In this document: piece by piece, positions 5,543 through 64,000 of the stretch
How positions within the stretch are numbered: position 1 is the first letter of the stretch
Layout: every line of letters starts with the position of its first letter
From: an uncultured Candidatus Saccharibacteria bacterium
GTDB taxonomy: Bacteria > Patescibacteriota > Minisyncoccia > Phycocordibacterales > UBA2100
Reading direction: 5' to 3'
Assembly: GCA_964594735.1 (NCBI GenBank)
Contig: CAZQMS010000006.1
Location: 13,982-77,981, forward strand
DNA length: 64,000 bases
The notes under the pieces: model-generated
Databases searched by the model: none
Told to the model about the DNA's origin: nothing
Seen by the model: only the letters and a program-made list of their open reading frames with translations
Made by a program: the position numbers and the translations under genes

Positions 5543-5559
5543 ATCCCTCCCTCTCCGCA
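5543..5559 (+). repeat. direct partial copy (16-17 nt) of tRNA-Ser 3' end (att-like scar)
   Basis: ATCCCTCCCTCTCCGC identical to tRNA 3' end. Confidence 0.6.
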
Positions 5560-5622
5560 CGAAGTTTTGAGTATCGGAAGACAGGAGTGCTCGATTTTTC
5601 AGATGTAAGGTAAGATATTTAC

Positions 5623-5898: not shown

Positions 5899-5901
5899 TT
5901 T

Positions 5902-6216: not shown

Positions 6217-6354
6217 AAAAGTCGCTGAAATACCCTCACGGTACCTCACCGCTCTGGTACTGAACCCGAGTAGCCCGCATAATATTAGACAAGGAAAAGT
6301 CGCTTTCTGACGTGCTTAGCCCCAACACCGAAATTAGTAGTTAATTTTCGAGCT

Positions 6355-6696: not shown

Positions 6697-6724
6697 TCTT
6701 TTTATCAACTTATTCGATAACTAT

Positions 6725-7093: not shown

Positions 7094-7364
7094 AATGAAC
7101 GGCGAGTTAGCGGAAAAGTATCCACTATCTGACGAGCATATCGCTGAGCTTGCGGCGTTCTTTGCGCTGTTAGCGAAGTTCGATATGGAGGACAAACAAA
7201 GAGAGATGTCTCGACAACATGCTGACCATTGAGGCATGCCGTGCTCTCATACCGGACGGCGACAAACTTTCGGATGAGGAGATAGTTAAAATCCGCGAAT
7301 CACTATATGGCTTCGCGAAGCTAGCCCTTGACGTATATTTCAAGGAAAAAGGGACGGAGAAAAA

Positions 7365-8138
7365 CTAGGCCTGCTGCGCGTATGCGTCTTTGTCGTACAC
7401 AACCTCAGTTATTTCTTCTCTCGCTTTTAGTACTGCTATTACCTTTCCAGCTGCAAAATAATTCTCGAAATCTCTTGCGTGTACAAAAATGGGTGGATAA
7501 TCCTCTGATGACTCAGATACCAAGACGACTTGATGTTCTAAATCATTTAAGAGCAGTCTTTTTATATTTGCTAGTCCGTTGATGATAGATAAAACATAAT
7601 CTCCACTACTGAAGTCTTTATCCTCTCCGTCAACTATTACATAATCGCCATCTTGTATTGTCTTGCCAGCAATGCTCGCCCTATTCATTGAGTTGCCCAC
7701 AGCCTTTACCGCAAACAATGAGCTGAGATTCGTGTCTCTTTTAACTAAACGGGGTGATATTTGTAGCACGCTCTGTTCCACACTTCCGGCGAGGACAGTA
7801 GCTGGCCCACAGTTGGCAAGCCCATACAGTGGAATTGAGACCAACAATTTCTTGTCCACCGTAGAGCGAGTCTGCGTATCACTTATACGACCAGAATCGC
7901 GGATTTTATCCAAAAGATTCAGCTTTTGTAGGTGATATTTAATCTTCTGCGGGTGGGGTTCTCCTACAAGGCGACCCACTTCACGCAGGCCAAGACCCTC
8001 TAACCCTCTTTTTTGAGCGAGTTCCAGAAGCTTCCTCTGTATCGGATGCACACCCACACCATATCCGTACGAGTTCAGGGTGTCAACGGGCATGTGTTGA
8101 CAATTTCTGCCGTTGACGGGGATTTCCTCCATTGACAT
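7365..8138 (-). CDS. LexA/CI-like transcriptional repressor with S24 peptidase domain
   Basis: N-terminal LexA-like wHTH (HPIQRKLLELAQKRG...KIKYHLQKL); C-terminal Ser-Lys dyad region AVGNSMN...IKRLLL; about 45% GC. Confidence 0.65.
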   Translation of the reverse strand: MSMEEIPVNGRNCQHMPVDTLNSYGYGVGVHPIQRKLLELAQKRGLEGLGLREVGRLVGEPHPQKIKYHLQKLNLLDKIRDSGRISDTQTRSTVDKKLLVSIPLYGLANCGPATVLAGSVEQSVLQISPRLVKRDTNLSSLFAVKAVGNSMNRASIAGKTIQDGDYVIVDGEDKDFSSGDYVLSIINGLANIKRLLLNDLEHQVVLVSESSEDYPPIFVHARDFENYFAAGKVIAVLKAREEITEVVYDKDAYAQQA

Positions 8139-8514
8139 TCCAACAGCGGGGTCTACACTTCACACAGCTCTCACACAAAACGAAAGCGACGGCCACTCGC
8201 AAAAGTTAGACCGCCGCATTCGTTCATCATCGAATAGGAGCGTAGCGCTTTCTATTCTCTGTGCGAGAGCAGGGCTTACGCCCCGACTCTGTACATGCAA
8301 GATAGCATCGTGCGTGCCGATTACCAAGCGCTACGATAACGTGATACGACGTATGTCTCAATACAGACGGCGGCGCGGGTACGACACTTGGCACTTTTGT
8401 TCCAACTGCTCCAACTATCCGCACTACGACTTCGATTCGCGCGACACCAAGCCCTCAAGCGGAGAGTTCTGCAACGAGTGCCTCGCGAAGCAGAAGGCGG
8501 GTACCTGCTACTAA
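8113..8514 (+). CDS. possible Cys-rich zinc-ribbon protein (real start probably internal)
   Basis: C-terminal CSNCSN...CNEC pairs; weak. Confidence 0.2.
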   Translation: MTGISSIDIPTAGSTLHTALTQNESDGHSQKLDRRIRSSSNRSVALSILCARAGLTPRLCTCKIASCVPITKRYDNVIRRMSQYRRRRGYDTWHFCSNCSNYPHYDFDSRDTKPSSGEFCNECLAKQKAGTCY

Positions 8515-9012
8515 CAATCGAAGCCCGAGGGACGGGGCGTGGTGTTGAAACCGCATCGCGCCCCCAACTCAGGGTTCTAAAATCATTACTTACTATCAAC
8601 TAACACGTTATGTCTCATCGAAAAACAAGTTCACGCGCTGCTACCGCAGCCTCTAAGGTTCTGAGAGACCCCACATCTACCAGAGCTGAGAAATCTGCTG
8701 CTGCAAGTGCGCTCTCGCAGCGAGCTACAAACGATAGGCGACGCCATAGATAGTATGGTTATCGTCGCAAGAGATGCCGCTCCTCGTTGGGTCAGGAACT
8801 CACTTCGAGCGTTCCTGGAGGGCGAACAGAATCTTACTTGGATTGCGGGGATTTTGAGGGGTCAGCCCGCTGACTATATACGTTCATTGGTACACTCGAT
8901 GCAAGGTGCGCCGGAACGCAAGGCTGAACTGAATCAGTGGCTGAACGAAATCCGGTAGGGTGGGCCGAGTCCCTCTCATGTCGCCTCGCGCATCGAGGCG
9001 CATACTTCTCAT

Positions 9013-9786
9013 ATGGAACAACACATAAAAGACGCTCATTTATTGAGACTAAGGAAAATATTTCGAGAGAACTTTCTCAGAGAGCTATCGGACGAACAGG
9101 CGTCCGAGTATCTGGATAAGATGTACACGCAGACCCGCGCTGAACTTGCGCGGCTACCGAACTTTGGCGCAAAGGCCACCGAGAAGTATCTATCCGGCAA
9201 TCTCGAAATCGTGTTCTCGCCCAACGCAATAAATGCCGAGGTGCTGCGTGTCGTCAACGAGATAGGCATTGAAGCTCTTGAGGCTTCGTCCAAATACAAG
9301 CGTATGGCCGAAATGGTGGACGCTTCATGCCTCGCTTTGGCACTTAAGAAAGCGGGCAAAGGCGAGTGGGTCATAAAAGGACAAGACGCACCGGACATTC
9401 TTCTGGTGCAGCCTGACCCTGAACACACGATGGGCAAGCCTTTTAGGGCTATCTCACTCGAAATCATGCAGATACCAGAGTTCGCAAAGGAAAAGTTTGG
9501 CGCGGACGTGGAGGCTGACGCGGCACAGTTCATTCAGGACAAGAAGTACACAAAGCGGTACGAGGGCATACCGCACCTGCTCGTGCATCTCAATTTCGAC
9601 CACATCGGCTTCAAGACGAAGCGACTAAGCGAGAAGTTGTGCGAGGAAAAGAACAGCCCATTCCGACAGATTTGGATAAGAGTTAACGCCGACCCTGTGT
9701 CTCAGGTGATGAAAATGGTTCTCGTCTATCCCGTGTACATGGAGTTTGAGTTCGACTTTCTAAATGACCGCCACCTGATGTTTTAG
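9013..9786 (+). CDS. hypothetical protein, island-borne
   Basis: 257-aa ORF with no recognisable motif; low GC. Confidence 0.45.
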   Translation: MEQHIKDAHLLRLRKIFRENFLRELSDEQASEYLDKMYTQTRAELARLPNFGAKATEKYLSGNLEIVFSPNAINAEVLRVVNEIGIEALEASSKYKRMAEMVDASCLALALKKAGKGEWVIKGQDAPDILLVQPDPEHTMGKPFRAISLEIMQIPEFAKEKFGADVEADAAQFIQDKKYTKRYEGIPHLLVHLNFDHIGFKTKRLSEKLCEEKNSPFRQIWIRVNADPVSQVMKMVLVYPVYMEFEFDFLNDRHLMF

Positions 9787-9861
9787 ACGAGCCAGCTGTT
9801 CCATCTCGTGGATAAGGATTCCAACCGCCTTATATAGTCGGGCAGACGAACAAAAGCCGCC

Positions 9862-9885
9862 CTAAGGCGGCCTTTGCTACGCTCC
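9862..9885. terminator. terminator hairpin inside island
   Basis: AAAAGCCGCCCTAAGGCGGCCTTT. Confidence 0.5.
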
Positions 9886-10085
9886 ATCACTTCTCCCTGT
9901 ACTGCTCTTTGCTAGTAATGCCCCATTGACAACGGGTTGCCCAAAAAGTGATGAAATGTGATTAATTTTGATTTCTGGTAAGTACGTTTGCGAACTTCGC
10001 CTTTTGCCGATAATCCGCACACTCTCTAGCTTTTTCCTTGTTTTGCTCGACGTTTCGACATACCATCAGAAATTATCCGAGAGTA

Positions 10086-10795: not shown

Positions 10796-11098
10796 ATGTC
10801 AGAACTACTCTCGTCAGATGAAGTATCGCGTCGCGTCGCGCAGTTGGTCGGCTGGGAAGTCGCGGAAGATGGCACCGAGATAGAAAAATCGTACGATTTT
10901 CCCGATTTCAAGAGCGCGCTCGCGTTTGTGAATCGTGTCGGGGAGGTAGCGGAGGCGCAGAATCATCATCCAGAGATTGATTTGGGATGGGGAAAGGTGG
11001 AGATAGAGCTCTCTACGCACTCTGCGGGAGGTCTTACGGAGAAAGATTTCAATCTTGCGTCGAAAATTGACGCTCTCGAAGCGAACGAGGTGCTATAA
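10796..11098 (+). CDS. pterin-4a-carbinolamine dehydratase
   Basis: E-x-HHPE motif (EAQNHHPEIDLGWGKVEIEL), about 100 aa. Confidence 0.75.
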   Translation: MSELLSSDEVSRRVAQLVGWEVAEDGTEIEKSYDFPDFKSALAFVNRVGEVAEAQNHHPEIDLGWGKVEIELSTHSAGGLTEKDFNLASKIDALEANEVL

Positions 11099-11105
11099 TT
11101 TTTCA

Positions 11106-12248
11106 ATGGCGTTCTCCCTAGGCAATCTTCTCAAGAATTTTGGAGGGAAAAAAGACGAAGGAAGCGTCGTCGGCATCGATATTGGTACATCGACCGCAAA
11201 AGTCGTGCAGCTGCGCTCTTCGCGCGGCATCGCCATACTCGAGACGTATGGCGAAATTGCACTCGGTCCGTATGCTGACCAGCCTATCGGCAAAGTGGTA
11301 AAGCTCGCACCCGAAAAGACAGCGCAGGCGCTCAAAGACCTCATGAAAGAGGCGAATGTGACGGCAAAAAACGCGGGTGTGTCTGTGCCATTCTCCTCGA
11401 GCCTCATCTCGATACTCGATTTGCCGAAGGTGGACGCCGAATCACTTAAGCGCATCGTGCCCATCGAGGCGCGCAAGTACATTCCCGTAGCGGTTTCAGA
11501 TGTCACCCTCGATTGGTTCATCATCCCGCAAGATGAAGAGCGCGACAGCGCCTTTGACCAGCTGCAGACCACCACCAAGGTGCAGGTAAAAGGGCAAGAG
11601 GTGCTCCTCGCAGCAATCCACAACGACACACTGTGCTCGTACCAGGCAATCATGGAAGACATCGGGGTCAATGCAGGCTTCTACGAGATAGAAATATTCA
11701 GCGCAATTCGCAGTTCGCTCGGACATGGGCTCGCGCCGATTATGATTGTGGACCTTGGAGCGAGTACGACGAAGATGTACATCATCGAGCGCGGTATCGT
11801 GCGCATGACGCACCTCCTCACGGTCGGGGGACAGCAGATGACAGAGACGCTCGGTCGCACCATGACCTGGGAATTCGAGAAAGCAGAGCGCATCAAGAGG
11901 GAGCGCGGTCTCGTGAGCACGAGCGCGTATGCCGACGACGAAAACACGCGCATCAAAGAAGCGCTGTTATCAACATTGTCCCGAGTGTTTTCCGAGGTGA
12001 ATCGGGTACTATTGAGTTACGGGCAGCGATACAATAAGAATGTATCGAATGTGGTTTTGACGGGCGGTGGTGCATCGCTTCCCGGAATCGTAGATGCAGC
12101 GAAAGAATCTCTGAGTGCTGAGGTCAGCCTCGCTGATCCGTTCTCGCATACTGAGGCACCCGCATTTCTCGGCGACGTCCTTCGCGAAATTGGTCCAGGC
12201 TTTTCTGTCACCGTGGGGCTCGGACTCCGAAAGCTCAAGCGTTCATAA
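11106..12248 (+). CDS. pilM: type IV pilus assembly protein PilM (actin-like ATPase)
   Basis: VVGIDIGTSTAKVVQL N-terminal actin-fold motif; size and locus context. Confidence 0.8.
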   Translation: MAFSLGNLLKNFGGKKDEGSVVGIDIGTSTAKVVQLRSSRGIAILETYGEIALGPYADQPIGKVVKLAPEKTAQALKDLMKEANVTAKNAGVSVPFSSSLISILDLPKVDAESLKRIVPIEARKYIPVAVSDVTLDWFIIPQDEERDSAFDQLQTTTKVQVKGQEVLLAAIHNDTLCSYQAIMEDIGVNAGFYEIEIFSAIRSSLGHGLAPIMIVDLGASTTKMYIIERGIVRMTHLLTVGGQQMTETLGRTMTWEFEKAERIKRERGLVSTSAYADDENTRIKEALLSTLSRVFSEVNRVLLSYGQRYNKNVSNVVLTGGGASLPGIVDAAKESLSAEVSLADPFSHTEAPAFLGDVLREIGPGFSVTVGLGLRKLKRS

Positions 12249-22112: not shown

Positions 22113-24430
<2,318 letters not shown>

Positions 24431-27356: not shown

Positions 27357-27407
27357 ATTGTTCAACTCTAGACCTCACATCCATACTGCGCTTGGTATGA
27401 TGTTGAG

Positions 27408-27872
27408 ATGGTGAATTCGAGACGTCCGAGAAAGCCCTGTCGCAATTGTGGCAAAGAGCCCGCAAGCCATACGTATACATATTGCAGCAACCTATGCCAA
27501 CGTGAGCAAGAACACAAAATCTATATAAAAAAATGGAAACGAGGGGAAATATCTGGACTAAGTACCATAGGGACAGTTTCGTCTAATCTTAAAAGATACT
27601 TGCGGAATAAATTTGGCAATAAGTGCTGTCTGTGCGGGTGGGCAGTAGTGAATGAAAAGACTGGGCAGGTACCTTTGGTTGCCGATCATATCGATGGAAA
27701 CTGGAGAAACAATCTAGACACAAACTTGCGTCTACTGTGTCCGAATTGCGATGCCATCAGTCCCACGTTTGCGGGACTCAACAGAGGGAAAGGAAGAACA
27801 AATCGTGGAGTAAGTAATCGGGTCAGGGAAGGGGGTCTTCTTGCGAGAAGTAGAAAACGGCGCAGGACGTGA
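27408..27872 (+). CDS. HNH endonuclease (low-GC insertion in tRNA cluster)
   Basis: CRNCG...CSNLC and CLCGW...HIDGNWRNN...LLCPNCD HNH/zinc motifs; about 45% GC. Confidence 0.75.
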   Translation: MVNSRRPRKPCRNCGKEPASHTYTYCSNLCQREQEHKIYIKKWKRGEISGLSTIGTVSSNLKRYLRNKFGNKCCLCGWAVVNEKTGQVPLVADHIDGNWRNNLDTNLRLLCPNCDAISPTFAGLNRGKGRTNRGVSNRVREGGLLARSRKRRRT

Positions 27873-45404: not shown

Positions 45405-45492
45405 ATCGGTACACCGTGTCGGCGTTCATGAACGCGGCATTCCACATCATTTTTTCAAAGACCTTGTAAGAGAGTGTTGGTATACTCCGTCT

Positions 45493-47013
45493 ATGACAGT
45501 GATGAAGCGCTCTCGCATTTTCTTGTTGCTGTTCGTTGCGGCGTGTGTCTTTCCGAGTGCGGCGGCAGCGCAGACGTCAAAATTCGAAGTAACGGGCTGG
45601 ATACCGTACTGGAGGAGCGCGACAGGTACGGCGGATACGCTCCCGCACCTCGACAAGCTCACCGAAGTGAATGCGTTCGTGTACACACTGAAGCAAGACG
45701 GTACGCTATCCGACAACGGCAATCTTGATCAAGAACCGTGGCTCTCGTTGCATGCTGCAGCCAAGGCAAAAGGCGTGCGCGTCATCCCGACGGTGATGTC
45801 GGGCGATCGGCCGCTCATGCACCGCATCCTCAGCAATCCGACGACACGCAAAGCGCTGGTGGATGAAATCGTGCGCACGGTCAATCAAAAGGGTTTCGAT
45901 GGCATCGATATCGACTTCGAGCACAAGCTCGCTGAGACGCGCGACCACTTCTCAGCATTCCTCCGCGAGCTCCAGGCGGCGCTTGGGACGAAGTGGCTCA
46001 TGTGTACTATCGAGACTCGAATACCGCTGAGCGATCAGTACTACGGAGTGACGATGCCCGCGGGTGCTGGTGAGTACTCCAACGACCTCAAAGCGATCAA
46101 CACCTACTGCGACCGCGTGCGCATCATGGCGTACGACCAACAGCGCATCGACCGCAGCGTCAATGCGCAGTACGAAGCGCGCGGCGAACTCTACGCACCT
46201 GTCGGCGACCCTGCGTGGATAGAGAAAGTGGTCAATTACATGAGCGCCGACATATCAAAAGACAAGATGCTCATCGGCATCCCCACCTACGGCTACGAGT
46301 ACGCGGTGACGTCCTACGCGAACAACCAGTACGTCTACGATATTCTCTGGACATTCAATCCCGGCTACGCATGGCCGCTTGCGCAAGAGCGCGGGCTCAC
46401 CCCGACGCGCGCCTCCTGGGGTGAAATGCACTTCTCCTATATCTCCGCAATCCCCACGAGCACACAGCCAAGCAATCTCGGTGCAAACTCGGCGCTCCTC
46501 GCCGCCGCGGCATCAAGCCTCTTTGCGAACCAAAACAATTCCAACATGACATTTCGCTACGTCGTGTGGCCCGATGCCACATCGATCCAGCAGCGGGTAG
46601 ACCTCGCGAAACGATTGGGGGTGCGCGGCGTCTCGGTGTTCAAATTCGACGGCGGTCAGGATCCGGGCATGTGGGGTGTCCTCTCTGGCGTTCGTGGCGA
46701 GATTGAGCAGAAGACCGTATCGGCAGCTCCAGGCGGTGGCATGCTGAAGGCCGTCACGCGTCCACTCTCGCTCAATTCGGTCCACGCTGATGTAAAGACT
46801 GTCCAAATCATCCTCAACTCAGATCCTGATACGCGCGTGGCGCAAAGCGGCGCCGGCTCGCCAGGGCAGGAGACTACCAGGTTCGGCCCACTGACGCGCG
46901 CGGCTGTTCAGAAATTCCAGGTCAAGCACGGCATCGCGGGCCCCGGCCAGGCGGGCTATGGCACCGTCGGCCCCAAGACCCGCGCCAAGCTCAATCAGCT
47001 TATTGCGCTTTGA
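45493..47013 (+). CDS. secreted glycoside hydrolase family 18 protein with C-terminal peptidoglycan-binding domain
   Basis: Signal peptide; GH18 DGIDIDFE catalytic motif; C-terminal PGBD_1-like VQIILN...[27 protein letters not shown]. Confidence 0.75.
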
Positions 47014-47050
47014 GCTATTGCTGTGCTCTGCGCTGATATACTAGACCGAC

Positions 47051-48307
47051 ATGATGTCGGAGCGCCTTCCACGTAAATCCAATTCCTCATTTGAAAAAGA
47101 ACGTGCATTCCACGACGAGCGCTGGTCAAAGAAGACGGAGGGTTTCAATCTGAGACGAAAGACTAGCGATGATTTCATGCGCGATGAAGCGAATCGCGAT
47201 AACGCAGATTTCGATAAGCGTCAGCACGTGGAGTTCGAAAAATGGCAGGAATCGTTGCGTGTCGTGATTGAAAACCTAAAGTCTCGAATCGAGAATCCTA
47301 ATGACCCCGACAATACGGTGATGCTGATCATGATGGGGGGCGGGATGAAGGGACCTTATACGGCGGGGCAAGGACTGGCTCTGCAGATGGTAGGCCTCAC
47401 TCCTGAGAAAGTAGACATGGTCGTTGGCACATCAACAGGGGCGGTTGTCGCGACCGCATTTGTCGCAGGTATCGAGGCGATGAAGAAGAGTACAACCATG
47501 ATGCTTGAAGAGCTTTCGTCAAAAGACTTCATCAATCCAGCGCGGTTTTGGGAAGTCATCAAGATTCGGATGATAAAGAAACTATGGACTGAAGAAGGAG
47601 AGTATGCGCTAAATATAGACGGTATCAAGAAAGCGAAGCCAGATCTGATTTATACTGCGACGGAGCCTGTCAAAGGCGACGAGGAGCCGATAGTACGATT
47701 GCTCGATGCGAAGACCATAGAGCCGGGAATGGTCGATGGAGTTATGGCATCTATGTCCATTCCATACATAACAGGCGAGATTCCGGAGATTGACGGGGAA
47801 ACATACTACGATGGGGGATTCGGCCGAATGGATATAGAGGCGTACATAGATGAATTCACCAAGCGACACGGCAAACCTCCAAAAAATATCCTGATATTGC
47901 CAACGATGCCTTTCGACGTACTCGAGAACATTAAGCCCTCAGTCGCCGAAATGAAATTAGCGGAATTTGCTCAGAAGAGAGCAGGCTCATTGGTGCAAGC
48001 AGGCTCTCTCGATAAGGCTGCTTCGCTTCGTCAAATAGAAAAGGGACTCTTGCTCAAAGCGGAGCAGCGCAAGGCCTTAGAATTGATTCAACAGAGAAAG
48101 GGTATCCATATTGGGATAATGTGGCCGCCGAATTCTGACCTCACGACGATGAGCATCGATGGGGGAGAAATGAAGGAGGCAGTACTCTCGTCCGCGCGAG
48201 ACACAATCAAACAATTCGGCGAAAAGCAGCCTGATGAGATACCGCTCTATGTCTCGCTAAAACAGAAACTCAAGGATGCCATCTCAAAATTCAAGACAGC
48301 GGCGTAG
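47051..48307 (+). CDS. patatin-like phospholipase with charged N-terminal extension
   Basis: GGGMKG oxyanion, GTSTG nucleophile elbow, DGG; about 48% GC. Confidence 0.7.
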   Translation: MMSERLPRKSNSSFEKERAFHDERWSKKTEGFNLRRKTSDDFMRDEANRDNADFDKRQHVEFEKWQESLRVVIENLKSRIENPNDPDNTVMLIMMGGGMKGPYTAGQGLALQMVGLTPEKVDMVVGTSTGAVVATAFVAGIEAMKKSTTMMLEELSSKDFINPARFWEVIKIRMIKKLWTEEGEYALNIDGIKKAKPDLIYTATEPVKGDEEPIVRLLDAKTIEPGMVDGVMASMSIPYITGEIPEIDGETYYDGGFGRMDIEAYIDEFTKRHGKPPKNILILPTMPFDVLENIKPSVAEMKLAEFAQKRAGSLVQAGSLDKAASLRQIEKGLLLKAEQRKALELIQQRKGIHIGIMWPPNSDLTTMSIDGGEMKEAVLSSARDTIKQFGEKQPDEIPLYVSLKQKLKDAISKFKTAA

Positions 48308-48350
48308 AGTATGTTTGCTCCTCAGGAAGATGGTGTAGAATGGGCTGACT

Positions 48351-56070: not shown

Positions 56071-56133
56071 ACGAGACGACTGTGCGGAGAGGGCGGAATC
56101 TAGCCTGCACGGTGCGAGTGGTACAGTGGACAC

Positions 56134-56713: not shown

Positions 56714-56745
56714 CAGCCGCCCGGGAAAGCCCGGGCGGCTGGCTT
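56714..56745. terminator. bidirectional terminator
   Basis: CAGCCGCCCGGGAAAGCCCGGGCGGCTG. Confidence 0.7.
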
Positions 56746-56754
56746 GAGAGACTC

Positions 56755-56964
56755 TTATTTGCGAGCGAGCTTCATCGACGTAGCGGCGAGGTAGATTGCC
56801 GCGACACCGACGAGACCGTAGACAATGCGCGAGAGCATCGTCATGTCGCCGAAGAGCGTAGCGACGAGATCGAAATCGGCCGCCGCGACGAGGCCCCAGT
56901 TGAGGCCACCGACGATAACAAGCGCGATTGCGACCCAGTCGATGGTGCTAAGTGGATTCGACAT
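56755..56964 (-). CDS. DUF378-family small membrane protein
   Basis: GGLNWGLVAA hallmark, 69 aa, 2 TM. Confidence 0.7.
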   Translation of the reverse strand: MSNPLSTIDWVAIALVIVGGLNWGLVAAADFDLVATLFGDMTMLSRIVYGLVGVAAIYLAATSMKLARK

Positions 56965-57101
56965 AGGTTTCTTGGTGAGGGTAAAAAATACTTCTCGACC
57001 TTTTCATTAAAATCCTACCACGTCCTAAAAGCCCCAGTGTCCCCAAAAGGATGGCGAGGTGCATATCTCTTTCGCGACGTACTGTGCTCGTACCCTGTGG
57101 A

Positions 57102-57305
57102 ATCTATTCTAGTGTTTTGCCCTCCTTCGCATAAAGCTACGGACGGGCAGGCAAAAGACTGTAATAAGAAATCGGGGGATGGGATAGGGGTGAGGTGGGG
57201 GAATGGATGGATGGGGGTGGATGGGGAGGAGAATGGAGGGTGGCTGGGGAGACGAATGGGGGCGGCATCATGCCGAGTTCCCCAAAATCAAGATCCGTGG
57301 GATTC
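57102..57305 (+). repeat. repeat module copy A: hairpin (TAGTGTTTTGCC...GGCAAAAGACTG), purine-rich tract, junction motif GTTCCCCAAAATCAAGATCCGTGGGA
   Basis: Aligns along about 150 nt with copy B at 58347-58497. Confidence 0.7.
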
Positions 57306-57436
57306 TTGGTTGGGAGGGCTTTTACATGAGTGCCCGTCTGGGGGGCAGGTCTCGTATAACCGTGAAAAATAGCGTTTTTTCCACAGTTTTCACGATTATG
57401 ATTGCAATTAGCGTGAAAGCATGCTATACTTGAACT

Positions 57437-58330
57437 ATGGCTCGTACTCCGCACGTTTTTGGACAAATAAACTCGCTTCGAGAGCGCTACTACCGTGCAT
57501 TGCCGGGCAAAGAGTCGCTTATTCGAACACTCAACGAGGCGGAGATCCCCGAGCATGTCTACAACTCAAACGCGATCGAAAATAGTACTCTCACACTCGA
57601 AGAGACCGAAAAAATTCTTCTCCAGATCGACCTCGATCGCTTTGTAAGCGAGCGTGAGCTCTTTGAGGCAAAAAATCTTGCCCGCGTGATGGACTATATA
57701 GACAAAAAAGCCAAAGAAGTCGAGCTCTCCTTGCCGCTCATACTTTTTCTCCACCAAACACTCATAGCCAACATCCGCAACGAGATTGCCGGCCGCTTTC
57801 GCAAAGAAGGGGAGTGGGTGCGCGTGGGTGCGCACATCGGTGCGGATCCAAAAGACATAGAGCGCCTACTTACCGACATGGTTGCCACGTATCATGCAGA
57901 CGCCAGTGGTCATGTTGTTTCTCGCATAGCGCGCCTCCATCTTGTTTTCGAGGGTATCCATCCATTTTGCGACGGCAATGGTCGCATTGGCCGGGTGCTC
58001 AACAACTTCGCGCTTCTGCGCGAAGGATACGTGCCGATCAATATTGCCTTCGTAAACCGCGCGCGCTACTACGACGCGTTTAAAGAGTATGAGCAGAAAG
58101 GATCCACCAAGATAATGGAGGAATTGATCGGCCGAGCACTCACCAACAGTTACCACAAGCGCCTCGCGTACCTCGAGGGCAAAAATATTGTTACGCTCAA
58201 AGATTACGCAAAAAAGCACAAACTCTCCTACACCAACCTGCTCAACAAAGCGGGGCGCCAGACCATCCCTGCGTTTATGGAAAAAGGCGTCTGGAAAATC
58301 GCGGACGAGCCCACCCAGTTCGAAAAATGA
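57437..58330 (+). CDS. fic: Fic-family AMPylase (class II, intrinsic inhibitory motif)
   Basis: HPFCDGNGRIGR Fic motif; N-terminal SNAIEN matches (S/T)xxxE(G/N) inhibitory helix. Confidence 0.85.
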   Translation: MARTPHVFGQINSLRERYYRALPGKESLIRTLNEAEIPEHVYNSNAIENSTLTLEETEKILLQIDLDRFVSERELFEAKNLARVMDYIDKKAKEVELSLPLILFLHQTLIANIRNEIAGRFRKEGEWVRVGAHIGADPKDIERLLTDMVATYHADASGHVVSRIARLHLVFEGIHPFCDGNGRIGRVLNNFALLREGYVPINIAFVNRARYYDAFKEYEQKGSTKIMEELIGRALTNSYHKRLAYLEGKNIVTLKDYAKKHKLSYTNLLNKAGRQTIPAFMEKGVWKIADEPTQFEK

Positions 58331-58346
58331 AGATTTTGTGGGTCCG

Positions 58347-58497
58347 GATTCTATTTCAGTGTTTTGCCTGACCGGCCAGGGCAAAAGACTGTAATGAGGA
58401 TTGGGGGAATTGGGGAAAATTGGAAAAAAGGATTCGGAATGGGTGAGGACGGCTCGGCACCATGCCCAGTTCCCCAAAATGAAGAATTGTGGGAGCA
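58347..58497 (+). repeat. repeat module copy B: hairpin (CAGTGTTTTGCC...GGCAAAAGACTG), purine-rich tract, junction motif GTTCCCCAAAATGAAGAATTGTGGGA
   Basis: Homologous to copy A; bracketed by junction-motif copies at 58324-58341 and 58469-58494. Confidence 0.7.
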
Positions 58498-58504
58498 TTA
58501 GACC

Positions 58505-59047
58505 ATGTTTGGCGTGAGTGAAATGTTGCCGTTGTTTTTGTGGGCGCTAACGATCGCCGTCTTCGTCGCGGCTGTCGTGATGGCCGTGATACTTTTCATC
58601 GTGCGCCGCCGGGAGACGCCGCTCAGCTACACACGAAAGGAATCCATATTTGATATACACACTGAGCGCGAACTTTTTGACACATTGCAGGAGTTGTACG
58701 GAGACCGGTACTTCGTTTTCCCTCAAGTCCATTACAGTCATCTCTTGCGGCCGAGTAAAGAACTTTCGTATCGCGACAGGCTTGTTCTGAGAAACAAGGT
58801 AGACAGGAAATCTGCAGACTTCGTACTGTGCGAAAAGAGTGACGTAAGCGTCAGGCTTGTTATCGAGCTGGACGGCAGCAGCCATGACCGACCAGACAGG
58901 CAGGAGCGAGACACATTCATAAATTCGATTGCAAACACTTCCAATTTGAACCTGCTTCGTATGCCGACGAATCGCATGGATAGAGCGTCAGTACTAGAGC
59001 AAGTAGACGCCAAGTTGGCGCAGATTCCCGCAGGTTCCCCAAAATGA
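58505..59047 (+). CDS. DUF2726-like (NERD/PD-(D/E)xK-fold) protein with N-terminal TM
   Basis: YFVFPQVHYSHLL...KSADFVLCEKSD..VRLVIELDGSSH pattern. Confidence 0.65.
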   Translation: MFGVSEMLPLFLWALTIAVFVAAVVMAVILFIVRRRETPLSYTRKESIFDIHTERELFDTLQELYGDRYFVFPQVHYSHLLRPSKELSYRDRLVLRNKVDRKSADFVLCEKSDVSVRLVIELDGSSHDRPDRQERDTFINSIANTSNLNLLRMPTNRMDRASVLEQVDAKLAQIPAGSPK

Positions 59048-59060
59048 AGATTCGTGGGAT
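59033..59060 (+). repeat. junction motif copy C (GGTTCCCCAAAATGAAGATTCGTGGGAT) overlapping DUF2726-like stop codon
   Basis: TGA stop lies inside the motif. Confidence 0.65.
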
Positions 59061-59071
59061 GATTTTCACGC

Positions 59072-59794
59072 ATGCACAAATTGTCGCGCGCGACGATAGA
59101 GAAGTTGGGATATTACGTCTACATCCTCTCTGATCCGCGCACGAACAAGGCTTTTTACGTCGGCAAGGGTAGGGGCAATCGCATCAATTCGCACCTGCTC
59201 GGTGCTCTCGAGGAAAATACCAAAGAGACTCTGAAGATCCGCACTATTCGCGAGATTCAGGCTGCCGGCCTGGAAGTCGGTCTCACCATCTTGCGCCACG
59301 GCCTTTCTGAAAGGGAGGCGTTTGAAGTAGAAAGTGCGATTATCGATGTCTTTGGGTTGGAGAATCTTACCAACATCGTCACGGGTCACTATGCGCATGT
59401 GCGCGGGAAAATGAGCGTGCGTGATATCGAGATTGAATACCAAGCCAAACCGGCCGTCTTCGACGAGCCTGTTTTGCTTATCCGAATCAACAGACTATAC
59501 AGGCACGACATGCCCGCTGAAGAATTGTACGAAGCAACACGCAAGTATTGGCGAATCCGATTGCGAGATGATATGCCTCGTGTCGTCTGCGCAGTGTATG
59601 CGGGCATTATTCGCGAAGTCTACCTTGCGCAGACGTGGATACGCCCCAACGGCTTGAAGGGAAAAATTGAAGGCCGCATCGCTTTCGAGGGCGCGATCGC
59701 GCCGCCAGGAATCCGCGAGAAGTATCTGAACAAATCCGTCGTGCACGTTCTCAAGCAGGGGAGCCAGAATCCTATTAAGTACGTCGGGCGCTGA
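59072..59794 (+). CDS. GIY-YIG nuclease-domain protein with C-terminal extension
   Basis: GYYVYILSD...KAFYVGKGRG GIY-YIG motifs; about 240 aa. Confidence 0.7.
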   Translation: MHKLSRATIEKLGYYVYILSDPRTNKAFYVGKGRGNRINSHLLGALEENTKETLKIRTIREIQAAGLEVGLTILRHGLSEREAFEVESAIIDVFGLENLTNIVTGHYAHVRGKMSVRDIEIEYQAKPAVFDEPVLLIRINRLYRHDMPAEELYEATRKYWRIRLRDDMPRVVCAVYAGIIREVYLAQTWIRPNGLKGKIEGRIAFEGAIAPPGIREKYLNKSVVHVLKQGSQNPIKYVGR

Positions 59795-59888
59795 CTCCCA
59801 ACGGCTCAGACCCCCCCCGTCTGAGTCGTGGGATGGTGCCGCGCCTCCCATTTCCCAAAGCTCGGATTTGTGATCTAATCCTCCCGTT

Positions 59889-60773
59889 ATGAAGGAGGTG
59901 CCGAAATATCACGAAACGTTCATACCTATCCTTAAAACCCTTGCAGAGATGGGTGATGTCTCCACGGCTGCCTTGAAAGTCCTGGTCGCAAAGAAGTTTT
60001 ATGGGGATCTGCCCAAGGACCTGCTCGAACAAAGGACGAAGTCGGGACATATCCTTATTCTCAATAGGATCGGCTGGGGTAAGGCGTACCTGAAACAGGC
60101 GGGGATGATAGAGCAACCGGAGCGAGCGCTTGTGCGCATCACTGACAAAGGCCGAGAAGTTCTCAGAAAGGGCAAGCTCTCGCTCAAAGAGATCAAGTCA
60201 GACCCGGAGTTTCAGGCGCATCAAAAGACAGAGAGTGGCACCAAAGTGTCTCATGACCTCGACGAGACAGCTACGCCGCAGGATCAGATAGATGCCGGAT
60301 TCAATAAGATAGAGAATCAGGTCAAGACAGAGTTGCTCGCGAAGCTCAAGACGATAGACCCATTTTACTTTCAGAAAGTTATCCTGACGCTCCTCGAAAA
60401 GATGGGATATGGCGACTTGGTGGAGACACCGAAAACAGGGGACGGCGGTATCGACGGCATAATCACACAGGACAAGCTTGGGCTCGATAAGATCTACATC
60501 CAGGCGAAGCGCTTTGCAGACAGCAAGGTGCGTGAGTCGGACATTCGCGATTTCATCGGTGCGATGAGCCGCGATACCAACAAAGGCATCTTCGTCACGA
60601 CGTCAAAATTTGACCAAAAAGCACTTAGCAAGGCCAAAGACGCGAGTCACAAGATCATCACGGTCGATGGCGACCAGCTCGCCGACCTCATGTACACGTA
60701 CGGCGTCGGCGTCCAGGTGACCGACACCTACGAGGTCAAACAACTCGACGAGGACTTCTTCGAGCAGGCCTAG
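59889..60773 (+). CDS. mrr: Mrr-type restriction endonuclease (Mrr_N wHTH plus Mrr_cat)
   Basis: C-terminal GDGGIDGIITQD...IYIQAKRF PD-(D/E)xK; N-terminal winged helix. Confidence 0.8.
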   Translation: MKEVPKYHETFIPILKTLAEMGDVSTAALKVLVAKKFYGDLPKDLLEQRTKSGHILILNRIGWGKAYLKQAGMIEQPERALVRITDKGREVLRKGKLSLKEIKSDPEFQAHQKTESGTKVSHDLDETATPQDQIDAGFNKIENQVKTELLAKLKTIDPFYFQKVILTLLEKMGYGDLVETPKTGDGGIDGIITQDKLGLDKIYIQAKRFADSKVRESDIRDFIGAMSRDTNKGIFVTTSKFDQKALSKAKDASHKIITVDGDQLADLMYTYGVGVQVTDTYEVKQLDEDFFEQA

Positions 60774-60827
60774 TGCGCCGCAAGGCCAGCGCGGCGCGCA
60801 CTGGGTTATACTGGATCAAAATGCTTT

Positions 60828-62579
60828 ATGGTCAAGAAAATTGATTACGAAAAATGGTCGAAAGAGGAGTTGATAAAGGAGATCCAGCGAATCAAGGAAA
60901 CGACCTACGGCCTTGTGTGGCATAGGGATTTACCCGAGGAGAAAATCGACGTCCTCATAAATCCGGATGCTAGGACACCGAGCGAGATGTTCCCCAACGA
61001 AATGGCGGGCAAGCCTTTCCCCGTGCTGAAAGAGGTGAAATCAAAGGCGGTAGAAACCGACGCAAAAAAGCCAGTAAATATTCTCATTGAGGGCGATAAC
61101 TATCACTCGCTCGCCGTGCTCAACTTTACGCACCAAGAAGCGATTGATGTGATTTACATTGACCCGCCCTACAATACTGGAAACAATGACTTTATTTATA
61201 ACGATTTACAAGCACGCGTCGTCCAAAAAGATGATCCGTATCGGCACAGCAAGTGGCTTGCTTTCATGGAAAAGAGGTTGAAGCTTTCAAAAGGGCTACT
61301 CAAGAAAACCGGCGTGATTTTCATAAGTATTGATGACAACGAACAAGCTCCTCTAAAAATGCTCTGCGATGAAATTTTCGGAGAGAAAAATTTTATAGGA
61401 ATGTTTAAGTGGAATAGAGTCGCGAAAGCACCAAGTCTTTCGTATTCTATGAGAACGAAATATGAGTATATTCTCGCGTATTATAAAGAAACACGAATAG
61501 AGTTGTTTGGTAAAAGTTCATACAATACACAAGGACCTTTATGGCACTTGCCGAATAAAAGAGTCCAACTAAACTTTCCGGCTGGCAGTTTGAAAGTGAA
61601 GCAGACATTTAAGAAGGGTGACTACGGCGGATCGTACAAGGTGGAATTGCTTGACGATATTATTGAAGAAGGTGGTTTCAACAAAAATGACGTGAGAATC
61701 CTTGCCCATTCAGCGTGGGGTCAAGCAAGAATTAATCAATACTTAAAAGACGGGCTTACTTTTGAAATAAAGAAGACTCCGGCAACCGTATATACGACCC
61801 TAAACAGCGAGGGTAATTTCATTGCTCCCTCTGATTTAATAACGAAGGAAGAGTGTGGCGTTGAGACAAATACAGACGCAAGTGATGCATTGAAAGCCAT
61901 GGGGATTCCATTTGATGCTCCGAAGCCCGTGTCTCTAATAAAGTATCTGGCAAACATGGCCACGCACGACAACAAGTCGGCAGTTATACTCGACTTTTTT
62001 GCCGGTTCTGGGACTACGGGACATGCTGTTTTGGAATTGAACAAAGAGGATGGCGGCAATCGAAAGTTTATTCTGTGTACAAATAATGAGGAGCTTGATA
62101 ACAACGGAGGCAAAATCAAGCATAGGATTTCTACAGACATATGCTACCCGCGCGTGTCAAAAGTCATCAAAGGATACAAAACTACAGACGGGCAAAAAAT
62201 CGATGGACTAGCCGGCAATCTCAAATACTACACAACCGCATTTGTCGAAGCCGAGCCGTCGGACAGGAATAAACGCAAACTGGTGGACGAGTCGACCGAG
62301 ATGCTTTGCATCAAGGAGGCGGCGTTTGAATTGGTAAAGGAGGGCAAGGACTTCAAGATTTTCAAAAATACTGACAAGTATCTCGGCATCGTATTCCACG
62401 AGGACGCCATCGATTCGTACAAAGAGGCCATCAAGAAAATGGACGGGCATTTCAACACCTACGTCTTTTCGCTCGGCGACGAGCCTCACGAAAAAGAATT
62501 TGCTGATGTAAAAAGCAAAGTAACGCTCTGCGCTATCCCCGAAGTGATACTGAAAGTGTATCGGGAGATATTCAAATAA
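60828..62579 (+). CDS. mod: Type III restriction-modification methyltransferase (Mod, N6-adenine)
   Basis: Motif IV DPPY (IYIDPPYNTGNNDF) before motif I FFAGSGTTGHAV; 583 aa; about 42% GC. Confidence 0.85.
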   Translation: MVKKIDYEKWSKEELIKEIQRIKETTYGLVWHRDLPEEKIDVLINPDARTPSEMFPNEMAGKPFPVLKEVKSKAVETDAKKPVNILIEGDNYHSLAVLNFTHQEAIDVIYIDPPYNTGNNDFIYNDLQARVVQKDDPYRHSKWLAFMEKRLKLSKGLLKKTGVIFISIDDNEQAPLKMLCDEIFGEKNFIGMFKWNRVAKAPSLSYSMRTKYEYILAYYKETRIELFGKSSYNTQGPLWHLPNKRVQLNFPAGSLKVKQTFKKGDYGGSYKVELLDDIIEEGGFNKNDVRILAHSAWGQARINQYLKDGLTFEIKKTPATVYTTLNSEGNFIAPSDLITKEECGVETNTDASDALKAMGIPFDAPKPVSLIKYLANMATHDNKSAVILDFFAGSGTTGHAVLELNKEDGGNRKFILCTNNEELDNNGGKIKHRISTDICYPRVSKVIKGYKTTDGQKIDGLAGNLKYYTTAFVEAEPSDRNKRKLVDESTEMLCIKEAAFELVKEGKDFKIFKNTDKYLGIVFHEDAIDSYKEAIKKMDGHFNTYVFSLGDEPHEKEFADVKSKVTLCAIPEVILKVYREIFK

Positions 62580-62583
62580 AGAT

Positions 62584-64000
62584 ATGGCATGGATTCAATT
62601 CAAGGACTACCAAGAGACAGCCGTCGTTGACCTAAAACGCGAGTCAAACAAATTGCTCGATGCGGATGGCAACAAGGTGCTGATTTTCAAAGCGCCCACC
62701 GGCTCGGGCAAGACGTTGATGGTGGCCGAGTTTCTGAAGCGGCTTATCGACTCGCGTATCGATGGCAAGCATTTCTCTTTCGTATGGATAGCCGTCAATA
62801 AACTACACGACCAGAGCCGAAATAATCTAAAGAAATACTACGACCAGTACGGCGTGGGGCTAAAATGCTCCTATTTCTCCGATCTGCAAGAACGGAAAAT
62901 CGCCGAGAATGAAATCTTGTTTCTCAACTGGGCCAGTATCAACAAGGGTGAGAAAGGCATCATCACTCGCGCGAACGAGCGCGATAACAATCTAACGTCG
63001 GTCGTTCAACGCACGAAAGACGAGGGACGCATCGTCGTGCTCATCATCGATGAAAGTCATCATACAGCAAAGGGCGAAGAATCGTTGAAGGTTATTGAAG
63101 GAATCGCTCCAAAACTAACAATTGAAGTGTCCGCAACGCCTCAACTGAGAAGTCTCAAGGGTGTTGAAGTCGAACTGAAAGATGTAAGAAACGAGGGCAT
63201 GATAAAGAAAGAAATCGTCATAAACCCCGGCTTCGAGCACTATGTCATCGATAAGAAAAAGAACGATAAAACGGCAGACGAACTCGTGCTCGAAAGCGCG
63301 CTCAAGCGTCGTGCGGCGCTAAAAAAGAAACTCGAAGCCGAGGGGTCAAGTGTAAACCCACTACTGCTGATACAAATCCCCGATGCAAAAGCTGGACTTG
63401 CCGACAAGAAGGATGATGTAGTAAAAACGCTTGGTAAGTACGGCATAACGACCGAAGGCGGCAGACTCGCCATATACCTTTCCGAAAAAGACAATAAAAT
63501 AAACCTTGAGAATATTGAGAAGGACGAGAACGAAGTCGAGGTGATGATTTTCAAGCAAGCAATCGCGCTCGGCTGGGATTGTCCACGTGCGTCGCTTCTC
63601 GTCTTGTTCCGGCAGTGGCGGGAAGAAAACATGACATTTTCTATCCAAACGCTCGGACGCATTATGCGTATGCCGGAGCAGAAACACTACGACGACAACG
63701 AATTGAATCTCGGCTATGTTTTTACGAGTCTGCCGGATATCAAGGTCGCCGAGGATATTTCCCGCGAGTACATCACGGTATACGAGGGCAAACGGCGGGA
63801 CGACTACAAGGATATAAACCTCGAATCATGGCACTCAAAGCGGTTCCGTGAGGAAACGCGGCTCTCGCCGGATTTTGATCCTATTTTCCTCGATGCGGCA
63901 AAAGCGCTCAAAACAATGTCGCGCATAAAAAAAGACCACAGTATCGTCGACACGAAGCTCGTAGCGAGCGGCCGTATCTACGACATCGATCAGGAAGCAA
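62584..64000 (+). CDS. res: Type III restriction enzyme Res subunit (helicase domain), 3' end truncated by window
   Basis: Walker A KAPTGSGKT, DEAH-like IIDESHH; starts 5 nt after mod stop; not in ORF track because there is no stop codon in the window. Confidence 0.8.
   Translation, partial: MAWIQFKDYQETAVVDLKRESNKLLDADGNKVLIFKAPTGSGKTLMVAEFLKRLIDSRIDGKHFSFVWIAVNKLHDQSRNNLKKYYDQYGVGLKCSYFSDLQERKIAENEILFLNWASINKGEKGIITRANERDNNLTSVVQRTKDEGRIVVLIIDESHHTAKGEESLKVIEGIAPKLTIEVSATPQLRSLKGVEVELKDVRNEGMIKKEIVINPGFEHYVIDKKKNDKTADELVLESALKRRAALKKKLEAEGSSVNPLLLIQIPDAKAGLADKKDDVVKTLGKYGITTEGGRLAIYLSEKDNKINLENIEKDENEVEVMIFKQAIALGWDCPRASLLVLFRQWREENMTFSIQTLGRIMRMPEQKHYDDNELNLGYVFTSLPDIKVAEDISREYITVYEGKRRDDYKDINLESWHSKRFREETRLSPDFDPIFLDAAKALKTMSRIKKDHSIVDTKLVASGRIYDIDQEA

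Follow-up and report, generated by a model that had tools for sequence, protein, structure and literature searches.

A probable restriction-dominated defence island with a lineage-specific promoter-like motif at a variable site of an uncultivated Patescibacteria genome

We analysed a 64,000-nucleotide (nt) stretch of contig CAZQMS010000006.1 (positions 13,982 to 77,981; assembly GCA_964594735.1), hereafter the window, from an uncultivated bacterium of the Patescibacteria, or Candidate Phyla Radiation (CPR). The end of the window holds the left 7 kb of a gene island, with six consecutive open reading frames (ORFs) on the + strand from 57.4 kb onward. Pfam upheld the domain calls of all six, each of which belongs to a known family, and this bears out the first-pass annotation, which had described six consecutive genes with nucleic-acid-targeting or toxin domains. 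Five of the six proteins matched defence models in PADLOC, the exception being the DUF2726 protein. Drawing on domain identities, catalytic motifs, gene order, hotspot status and promoter-like elements, all of which the analysis shows, we interpret the locus with good confidence as a restriction-dominated defence island that is made up of known components and occupies a variable site specific to the lineage. The genes are as follows.

57437-58330, + strand: class II Fic protein (adenosine monophosphate (AMP)-transferase family), 297 amino acids (aa); Pfam E 7.5e-18; PADLOC PDC-S04 6e-33, SoFic ~2e-30
58505-59047, + strand: membrane-anchored DUF2726 (Vsr/DUF559-like PD-(D/E)xK) putative nuclease, 180 aa; Pfam PF10881 1.3e-25
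59072-59794, + strand: GIY-YIG protein, 240 aa, full-length CMoRE/PD-T4-3 homologue; Pfam LEM-3-like 4.9e-19; PADLOC PD-T4-3 3.9e-52
59889-60773, + strand: Mrr-type Type IV restriction endonuclease, 294 aa; Pfam Mrr_N 8.5e-19, Mrr_cat 9.3e-32; PADLOC mREase_IV 2e-53 (residues 4-292)
60828-62579, + strand: Type III Mod, beta-class N6-adenine methyltransferase, 583 aa; Pfam N6_N4_Mtase 4.3e-34 (residues 106-422); PADLOC MTase_III 8.5e-79
62584 to beyond 64000, + strand: Type III Res, first 472 of 749 codons in the window; Pfam ResIII PF04851 3.3e-20 to 7.9e-20; REase_III 1.4e-20 to 6.4e-20

The Fic protein has the active site H175PFCDGNGRIGR, which fits the consensus HxFx(D/E)GNGRxxR. N-terminal to this core and in the same chain lies S44-N-A-I-E48-N49, and E48 aligns with the inhibitory glutamate of human FICD ('tvaiEgn'), whose structures are the best matches among Protein Data Bank (PDB) entries (E 1.4e-21). 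The protein therefore carries its own SxxxEN inhibitory helix, as had been proposed at first pass. The same active site and same-chain (S/T)xxxE(G/N) helix are found in class II Fic proteins such as human FICD/HYPE and Clostridioides CdFic, whereas the island protein has in addition a 65-aa C-terminal tail that matches nothing in Pfam. PDB chains of SoFic match residues 141-215 only. The family is unusually conserved across the CPR: homologues number more than 8000, and identity across CPR classes is 73-86% for the top 120 cluster representatives. Elsewhere in the CPR, the Fic homologue of a Minisyncoccota genome lies 8 nt upstream of a Type III Mod gene, and that of Uhrbacteria overlaps a MazG-like gene adjoining an SLFN-type helicase; these loci are L108 5001-7767, L109 987-3753 and L110 5001-6219, where L-numbers, here and below, label relatives' loci and metagenome contigs. 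The island protein would be an auto-inhibited class II AMP-transferase and may serve as a toxin-type backstop.

The second protein scored 90 bits against the Pfam model of DUF2726, compared with a gathering cut-off of 24.7, and showed a weak DUF559 match as well. It begins with a transmembrane helix (approximately residues 4-34) followed by RRR, and this combination of helix and basic stretch is present in all full-length homologues that we retrieved. Under the positive-inside rule, the RRR directly after the helix places the DUF2726 domain in the cytoplasm. An alignment of 30 homologues shows no variation at D105, E121, D123 and H127, the putative catalytic residues. A structure predicted with AlphaFold2 (predicted local distance difference test score 93) had restriction-endonuclease folds as its top PDB matches in Foldseek (BstEII, 3ijm, BpuSI, TnsA and 3hrl), but these matches were weak (best E 1.2e-3, template-modelling score 0.35). 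DUF2726 has been classed with the Vsr/DUF559 PD-(D/E)xK nucleases of unknown function (PMC3424549) and reported as a DNase with the restriction-endonuclease fold that is fused to N-terminal domains of the Abi type (PMC3710099). It is not a recognised defence system, and we infer its defence role from association only; tethered at the inner face of the membrane, the nuclease would possibly attack entering DNA. As a separate observation, a MazG-like pyrophosphohydrolase gene followed by a fusion of a Schlafen-group-3 helicase and an S24 (LexA-like) peptidase (666-668 aa) is a recurrent pair in the CPR, often beside DUF2726 (L084 4756-7113, L102 5448-7805, L103 1095-3452).

The GIY-YIG protein is covered nearly end to end by characterised relatives. 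The PADLOC PD-T4-3 model matches residues 3-237 of 240 (profile positions 5-252 of 256), and the CMoRE structures PDB 9U75 and 9U7U align over residues 7-237 with E 5.5e-39, reaching position 258 of the 262 of 9U75. The region of the C-terminal modification-sensing domain is included in both the 9U75 alignment and the PADLOC profile match. CMoRE, the PD-T4-3 protein of Escherichia coli, is a Type IV enzyme that cuts DNA containing 5-hydroxymethylcytosine or its glucosylated form (5hmC/5ghmC), and a third tyrosine is one of its defined features, while a negatively charged auto-inhibitory loop is found in most, not all, members (PMC12923530). The island protein shows the motifs G13-Y-Y-V-Y17, Y29-V-G-K-G33, R37 and E85/E87, that is, a GIYxY-YIG signature with the third tyrosine. 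The loop at the corresponding place is shorter by three residues and acidic in part only (A-L-E-E-N-T-K-E compared with A-A-D-D-D-D-L-L in 9U75). Overall, the two proteins are alike in being encoded by a single gene, in size (240 and 262 aa), in the alignment of both domains, and in the signature and catalytic Arg/Glu residues; they differ in host, here a CPR bacterium rather than an enterobacterium, and in the loop, which is shorter here and has EEN..E in place of DDDD. The protein would act as a CMoRE-type Type IV enzyme, with hydroxymethyl- or glucosyl-hydroxymethyl-cytosine DNA as its predicted target.

The closest homologues of the GIY-YIG protein (75-77% identity) stand alone in unrelated neighbourhoods, which argues for a single-gene module. 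The first-pass annotation had treated the DUF2726, GIY-YIG and Mrr genes as single-gene modules, and this agrees with the lone GIY-YIG homologues and with the promoter-like element found at the start codon of each gene. A conserved operon of DUF2726 and GIY-YIG, with or without Mrr, was ruled out, as homologues of each gene lie in differing neighbourhoods.

The Mrr protein has a PF14338 winged helix at residues 7-93 and a match to the full PF04471 profile at residues 153-268, with D185GGID and Q205-A-K207. This is the two-domain layout of E. coli Mrr, a Mrr_N winged helix and a Mrr_cat domain with D...QxK. No PDB chain matched it by sequence. As a Type IV enzyme, it would cut methylated DNA. 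The gene lies directly next to that of an N6-methyladenine methyltransferase, and its target would presumably have to exclude the product of the resident Mod.

The last two genes encode a Type III restriction-modification (R-M) pair. In Mod, the DPPY of motif IV at residue 112 precedes the FAGSG of motif I at residue 391, with the target-recognition region between them, and the protein matches solved Type III Mod chains (PDB 6k0w and EcoP15I Mod 4zcf). The full 749-aa Res was taken from an identical 6.4-kb Logan contig. It has the superfamily 2 (SF2) helicase motifs GSGKT40, DESH156 and SAT183, a ResIII/DEAD helicase assignment in Pfam and a REase_III match spanning residues 28-410; a C-terminal nuclease-like motif, D668...D682-T-K684, lies beyond the window and was read by eye. 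The two genes are on one strand, and the few-nucleotide overlap reported at first pass is in fact a 4-nt gap between the mod stop codon (TAA 62577-62579) and the res start codon (ATG 62584). The same annotation was right that the pair is cut by the window end, where Res is truncated at 64000. Compared with EcoP15I-type systems, the pair has the same order, with mod upstream of res in one operon, a beta-class Mod that matches the EcoP15I and Helicobacter pylori Mod structures, and ResIII/SF2 motifs. Unlike EcoP15I, the island Res is short (749 versus ~970 aa), and its C-terminal half lacks a REase_III model region or matching PDB chain. Mod would methylate host adenines and Res would cut unmethylated DNA. 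Type III enzymes characteristically cleave in an ATP-dependent reaction requiring two unmethylated sites in inverse orientation, and hemimethylate an asymmetric site. Taken together, the five independent modules of the island would cover differently modified foreign DNA, with predicted specificities and a predicted anti-phage role.

Composition sets the Type III pair apart from the other genes. The GC content of the island is 49.1% overall and 42-53% per kb, compared with a background of 55.8%, and the island is the lowest-GC 7-kb window within the 64 kb. The low-GC region reported at first pass is thus real, whereas the figures given for it, about 42-50% within a roughly 60% GC chromosome, are not. 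We compared each island gene with 38 host genes by z scores of GC and of GC at third codon positions (GC3) and by codon-usage distance. Mod, at 43.7% GC the most compositionally foreign island gene, had a GC z of -6.2, a GC3 z of -3.0 and a codon-usage distance z of 1.5; for Res the values were -4.0, -1.7 and 0.0. For Fic, DUF2726, GIY-YIG and Mrr, GC z was -1.9 to -2.9 and GC3 z -1.3 to +0.3, with codon usage within the host range. The lower GC of these four genes sits in codon positions 1 and 2 and so reflects amino-acid content. Only Mod, and less clearly Res, is foreign-looking in composition, and the compositional argument for an island, which the first-pass annotation had extended to the whole region, holds for the Type III pair only.

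A homologue of Res that falls in the same 90% cluster and is 84-85% identical at the nucleotide level (L100 1-2159, JGI Ga0307786_1000557, aligned with window 62678-64000) lies at the start of an unrelated 63.7-kb contig. There, Res is followed by DUF2779 and a RelB/YafQ pair, and homology with the window ends at the Res stop. This copy in an unrelated contig, together with composition, points to the Type III pair as a separately moving module, and it looks like a separate, more recent acquisition than the other units.

On its left, the island is preceded by two features.

56714-56741, - strand: intrinsic terminator hairpin, 12 bp with 11 GC pairs, between the convergent HD_4 and DUF378 genes
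56755-56964, - strand: gene for a DUF378 small membrane protein, divergent from Fic; Pfam PF04070 E 1.6e-22

The DUF378 gene in divergent orientation, as first described, and the GC-rich hairpin are both real; the terminator was, however, first described as bidirectional, and its T-run is on the minus strand only, so that it is clearly the terminator of DUF378. Neither the 472-bp gap between DUF378 and Fic nor the island repeats had an Rfam match at the gathering threshold or at E<=1.

Comparison with relatives shows that the island occupies a variable site. The flanking HD_4 gene has its closest relatives (80% aa identity) in metagenome-assembled genomes of the Parcubacteria group and other Patescibacteria, and the named homologues of the island proteins are in Patescibacteria too (Parcubacteria, Moranbacteria and others). 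In blastn, the close relative L003 is collinear with the window from 45.2 kb to 56,678, the end of HD_4, where collinearity stops. At or near this site, L003 carries TspO, an ArsR-type helix-turn-helix (HTH) gene and a MmeI-type R-M gene, and another close relative, L002, carries ArsR, a small membrane peptide gene and a different Mrr (30% identical). In L084, the neighbouring DUF1905 gene is followed by MazG, an SLFN-type helicase/S24 fusion, a Dcm-type C5-methylase and a HATPase protein. Since relatives fill the site with differing restriction and defence genes, we interpret it as a lineage-level variable hotspot, lying just downstream of the conserved DUF1905-HD_4 genes. The synteny comparison that had been suggested at first pass thus places the break exactly after HD_4, with other restriction genes at the same site in relatives. 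Along with the five PADLOC matches, the break at the left edge and these other genes uphold the reading of the region as a defence island.

Genomic islands with R-M systems are known in Patescibacteria, as are low-GC variable R-M segments in small CPR genomes, with transfers mostly between Patescibacteria (PMC12455944). Compared with those islands, the present one is built of single-gene units that have a 29-nt promoter-like motif in common, along with duplicated remnants of a neighbouring gene. A blastn search of 72,556 plasmids and 50,697 phages returned short methyltransferase-motif matches only; this, and the absence of the 29-nt motif from viral contigs in IMG/VR bar one chance match within an ORF, ruled out a phage or plasmid origin. 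Integration of the transfer RNA (tRNA)/att type was also ruled out, as there is no tRNA gene near the island and no integrase was found among the flanking ORFs or by a crude signature search.

The 29-nt motif has the consensus TTCCCCAAAATGAAGATTTGTGGGATGAT, which can be read as a -35-like TTCCCC, a 17-nt spacer and TGg followed by GATGAT, resembling an extended -10 element. The island holds three copies of the 27-29-nt motif, compared with 0.00 expected, and the other 57 kb of the window hold none. These copies, their degenerate versions and the promoter-like site of Fic are listed here.

57032-57062, + strand: degenerate motif copy (CCCCAGTGTCCCCAAAAGGATGG...), from repeat analysis
57278-57306, + strand: motif copy A (TTCCCCAAAATCAAGATCCGTGGGATTCT), 5 mismatches to consensus
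57402-57430, + strand: Fic promoter-like site, TTGCAA, 17 nt, TG-n-TATACT; 6 nt separate its end from the ATG, a leaderless geometry
58318-58345, + strand: degenerate motif copy (GTTCGAAAAATGAAGATTTTGTGGGTCC), overlapping the last codons and stop of Fic
58470-58498, + strand: motif copy B, 3 mismatches; 6 nt separate its end from the DUF2726 ATG
59035-59063, + strand: motif copy C, 1 mismatch; contains the DUF2726 stop (AAAATGA) and ends 8 nt before the GIY-YIG ATG
59851-59879, + strand: degenerate motif copy (TTTCCCAAAGCTCGGATTTGTGATCTAAT), 19/29 match, TG-n-TCTAAT; ends 9 nt before the Mrr ATG

No ORF directly follows copy A, which is therefore probably a decayed promoter. [quoted passage not shown]

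The motif recurs in relatives, in front of diverse genes. An exact-pattern scan found it in 18 metagenome contigs, about 14 of which are clearly of the same clade, with 65-85% nucleotide identity in housekeeping genes. Four of the 18 matches (L086, L091/L099 and L098) were without the -10 part or a following ORF, and we treated them as chance or unrelated. Genes directly after the motif in the scanned contigs encode Tsp45I, an S-adenosylmethionine methyltransferase, DpnI, NYN, DUF2000, small membrane proteins and, four times, a MazG-like protein. Outside the scan, the motif lies 8 nt before the MmeI ATG in L003 and before a DUF2726 homologue in L101, and in L107 it occurs three times in tandem, before TspO, DUF2726 and MazG. 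The motif-bearing loci of relatives are L003, L082-L097, L101 and L107. It was found neither in 1.2 Mb of other retrieved loci nor in Rfam, and the viral contigs of IMG/VR held only the chance in-ORF match. Between contigs whose proteins are only 53-80% identical, the motif is identical at 27 of 27 positions, and the -10-like hexamer is exactly where conservation ends. Ordinary TGnTATxxT promoters precede the closest CMoRE homologues elsewhere, which rules out a motif travelling with the CMoRE gene and indicates that its association is with the lineage or locus, not the gene.

Promoter geometry in the island resembles that of the host. Many housekeeping genes in the window have a -10 hexamer of the TGnTAxxxT type (e.g. 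TGnTATGAT) 6-8 nt before the ATG and no Shine-Dalgarno sequence (examples are 11091-11105, 22116-22130, 27393-27407, 45478-45492, 47033-47050 and 56119-56133). Leaderless-type expression therefore appears to be the style of the host, and the sequence suggests widespread leaderless messenger RNAs (mRNAs) in the source CPR genome. Each island gene has its own promoter-like element by the start codon, ending 6-9 nt before it, or 15 nt in the case of Mod. Each gene would thus be transcribed alone from an extended -10-type promoter, with a geometry that implies a leaderless or near-leaderless mRNA, and DUF2726 and CMoRE, together with Mrr in degenerate form, share the lineage-specific 29-nt motif as a promoter-like element. 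We also observed, behind a motif-like promoter in relatives, a conserved gene for a hydrophobic peptide of 22-40 aa (M.ILI.G.V..AFA.GL...), located between the ArsR-type gene and a variable gene (L003 ~11525-11593, L002 ~3868-3972, L107 1679-1801, L083 ~3267-3386, L093 5689-5802); the window has no such gene.

Remnants of a flanking gene lie beside the motif copies and suggest how the island may have been built.

57099-57262, + strand: module 1, remnant of the 3' end of an ArsR-type HTH gene (ATTCTAGTGTTTTGCC..loop..GGCAAAAGACTGTAATAAG) with interrupted palindrome, then a G-rich tract
58346-58454, + strand: module 2, second remnant of an ArsR 3' end, including a hairpin and a G-rich tract shorter than that of module 1, to which it is 82-87% identical

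Segments of 150-200 bp on either side of Fic (57099-57302 and 58346-58494) align with a region in relatives that runs from the ArsR-type 3' end (..SILVFCKRLQ and stop, with the palindrome TTTTGCAAAA) through a G-rich spacer to the motif. Module 1 contains a 7-aa tblastn remnant at 57100-57120. In both modules, 11-29 nt are inserted in the TTTTGCAAAA palindrome and form a hairpin, and the G-rich tracts, which could possibly form G-quadruplex DNA, differ in length. The window locus has no intact ArsR gene, only these 3' remnants, and extra ArsR remnant copies lie beside the motif in L002, L089, L093 and L107. A circular 'flank + gene' molecule integrating by a single crossover would leave duplicated flank pieces on both sides of the inserted gene, as they bracket Fic here, and we infer from them that units were stacked stepwise. 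Units of flank, promoter and gene may have been added at the hotspot in this way, for example by Campbell-type integration of circularised DNA from relatives.

Several observations weigh against the reading as a defence island assembled in units. The Fic protein is not an orthologue of SoFic, scoring 41 bits against the 550-bit cut-off of the NCBIfam equivalog NF046030, although the looser SoFic model of PADLOC does match it, and a PDC-S04-type Fic gave no defence activity in E. coli NILS69 (PMC12409345). The DUF2726 protein matches no PADLOC model, and its gene adjoins MazG and TspO in relatives, so that a role in DNA or nucleotide handling is possible. Residues 410-749 of Res match no profile model and no PDB chain. 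The first four genes, being host-like in GC3 and codon usage, are not recent imports. No recombinase was found among the flanking ORFs or by a signature regular expression, itself a crude search, and the stacking is deduced from repeats only. The right boundary lies beyond both sequences available, as the window ends inside Res and the identical Logan contig stops 60 nt past it.

The motif allows two other interpretations. It could be the promoter-operator of a regulon governed by a lineage-specific regulator, be it the ArsR-type HTH protein that relatives encode next to it or an alternative sigma factor, for instance a competence- or damage-induced one; the genes it controls jointly would then serve DNA and nucleotide handling, and not all of them would be for defence. 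We regard this as possible, if doubtful: conservation takes in the spacer along with the -35 and -10 elements, the motif has an ArsR-type gene immediately upstream in L002, L003, L083, L089, L093, L104 and L107, genes without an evident defence function follow it (MazG, TspO, DUF1905, DUF2000 and small membrane peptides), and the housekeeping genes of the window lack it. The window locus, however, retains only the 3' remnants of ArsR, and such a regulon is compatible with a defence island. Alternatively, the motif could be primarily a recombination core site, dif/Xer-like or integron-like, through which single-gene cassettes move in and out by means of a recombinase encoded elsewhere, with its promoter function secondary. 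Integrons have an adjacent intI gene and attC sites with an R''/L''-L'/R' structure and a GTTRRRY core, and Xer/dif-type sites are 28-31 bp long, have two inverted ~11-bp arms that enclose a centre of 6-8 bp, and are used by XerC/D-type recombinases. The order of site, gene, site, gene here and in L107 fits such exchange, as do the two instances of an ORF-less segment bounded by motif copies, the 27/27 identity between contigs with divergent proteins, and the occurrence of the same gene (MazG or DUF2726) after different upstream neighbours with homology breaking at the 5' edge of the motif; by inspection, the arms TTTCCCCAAAA and TTTGTGGGATG (~11 nt) are 7/11 complementary around the 6-nt TGAAGA. 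Conservation, however, covers exactly the -35 to -10 interval with the start codon fixed 6-8 nt further on, as a promoter predicts, and the -10 variant travels with the downstream gene (GATAGTCT before MazG in 4 of 5 cases). The copies all have direct orientation, the arms show weak symmetry, and a crude regular expression found no integrase or tyrosine-recombinase signature in the window or related loci, nor any Xer gene in the window. An integron attC site was ruled out, since no recombinase was found among the flanking ORFs or by the crude signature search, the motif has GTTCCCC and not GTTRRRY, and attC-like paired arms are missing. The locus is like integron arrays and Acinetobacter pdif modules in having small single-gene units split by a short repeated site, one unit being ORF-less; it differs in the direct orientation, in the absence of a detected integrase and of an attC/GTTRRRY structure, and in that the site coincides with a putative promoter, which would supply the start of a leaderless mRNA. 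We therefore consider a role mainly in recombination unlikely. Equally improbable, to our mind, is a combined version, in which (G)TTTCCCCAAAATGAAGATTTGTGGGATGAT would be both promoter and exchange site of an undescribed Patescibacteria cassette system, in effect a 'defence integron' for ultra-small genomes that would be either integrase-less or Xer-dependent. Single genes for nucleases or restriction enzymes, expressed as leaderless mRNAs that begin 6-8 nt past the site, would then be inserted, stacked and swapped at the chromosomal hotspot beside the ArsR-type gene, and the remnants would be scars.

Two further interpretations concern the genes and the extent of the element. CPR bacteria depend on DNA uptake and nucleotide salvage, and part of the island might serve these needs, with the DUF2726 nuclease (together with MazG in relatives) acting in uptake or salvage and Fic being a housekeeping regulator. 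DUF2726 with its transmembrane helix is common in CPR contigs, often next to a MazG-like pyrophosphohydrolase, and the conservation of Fic across CPR classes (73-86%) is unusual for fast-evolving defence genes; the lack of a defence phenotype for PDC-S04 Fic and of a PADLOC match for DUF2726 point the same way. On the other hand, the DUF2726 domain is predicted to be cytoplasmic and not outward-facing like uptake nucleases, and its homologues also adjoin an OLD/ABC-type ATPase, a helicase and a GmrSD-HNH gene with a methylase. Fic homologues likewise occur in defence-type contexts (with the Type III Mod, and with MazG by an SLFN-type helicase), and DUF2726 has been described as a DNase fold joined to Abi-type domains (PMC3710099). 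We give a non-defence role for these genes little weight. The six genes could also be the visible end of a larger mobile element extending beyond the window, such as an integrative element, a plasmid-like island or a prophage remnant. The source contig runs to 83.7 kb with the window ending inside Res, and the Type III pair is compositionally foreign with an 85% identical Res copy elsewhere. The left edge, however, shows no integrase, tRNA or att-like end, plasmid and phage records match only through short methyltransferase motifs, and viral contigs do not carry the motif. Promoters and codons of the first four genes are host-style, and relatives hold different small gene sets at the site and not one large alternative element. 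We think a larger element quite improbable, and we retain the interpretation of a restriction-dominated defence island at a variable site.

Other parts of the window showed variable or atypical stretches. A gene for a patatin-like phospholipase (47051-48307, 48.8% GC) has weak PADLOC 'phospholipase effector' matches; its 1.3-kb stretch is absent from L003 (window 46998-48329 corresponds to L003 2579-2624), making it a second single-gene, strain-specific insertion. A second lower-GC stretch (5400-10000, 46-54%), directly after a tRNA-Ser gene (5285-5374), is possibly variable as well; Pfam recognised only one of its ORFs, an S24 (LexA/signal-peptidase-like) peptidase on the minus strand (7365-8138), and the stretch yielded no integrase. 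Between two tRNA-Thr genes in a tRNA cluster lies a 154-aa ORF (27408-27872, 46% GC) that matches HNH_3 weakly (E 0.0024) and whose ATG is preceded, at a distance of 6 nt, by a TGGTATGAT promoter.

All six gene families, and R-M islands in Patescibacteria, are already known. Added here are the evidence for a hotspot, a corrected compositional claim, and motif-bounded single-gene units with flank scars. Homologues of CMoRE/PD-T4-3 are now extended to CPR genomes, and their presence suggests that CPR phages may use hydroxymethylated cytosines. The genomes of CPR bacteria are about 1 Mb in size and, to our knowledge, mostly lack CRISPR. Bearing on how these organisms resist phages and remodel their genomes, at least 7.4 kb of one such genome is here spent on layered restriction, with systems predicted to act against unmodified, methylated and hydroxymethylcytosine-type DNA, plus a membrane-tethered nuclease and Fic. 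If the motif and flank remnants truly mark the addition of units, this would account for the building of islands in organisms that have few classical mobile elements, and the motif would be a sequence tag for unannotated defence genes in CPR metagenomes. Motif-bounded units with scars may thus represent an undescribed way of assembling defence arrays in CPR genomes.

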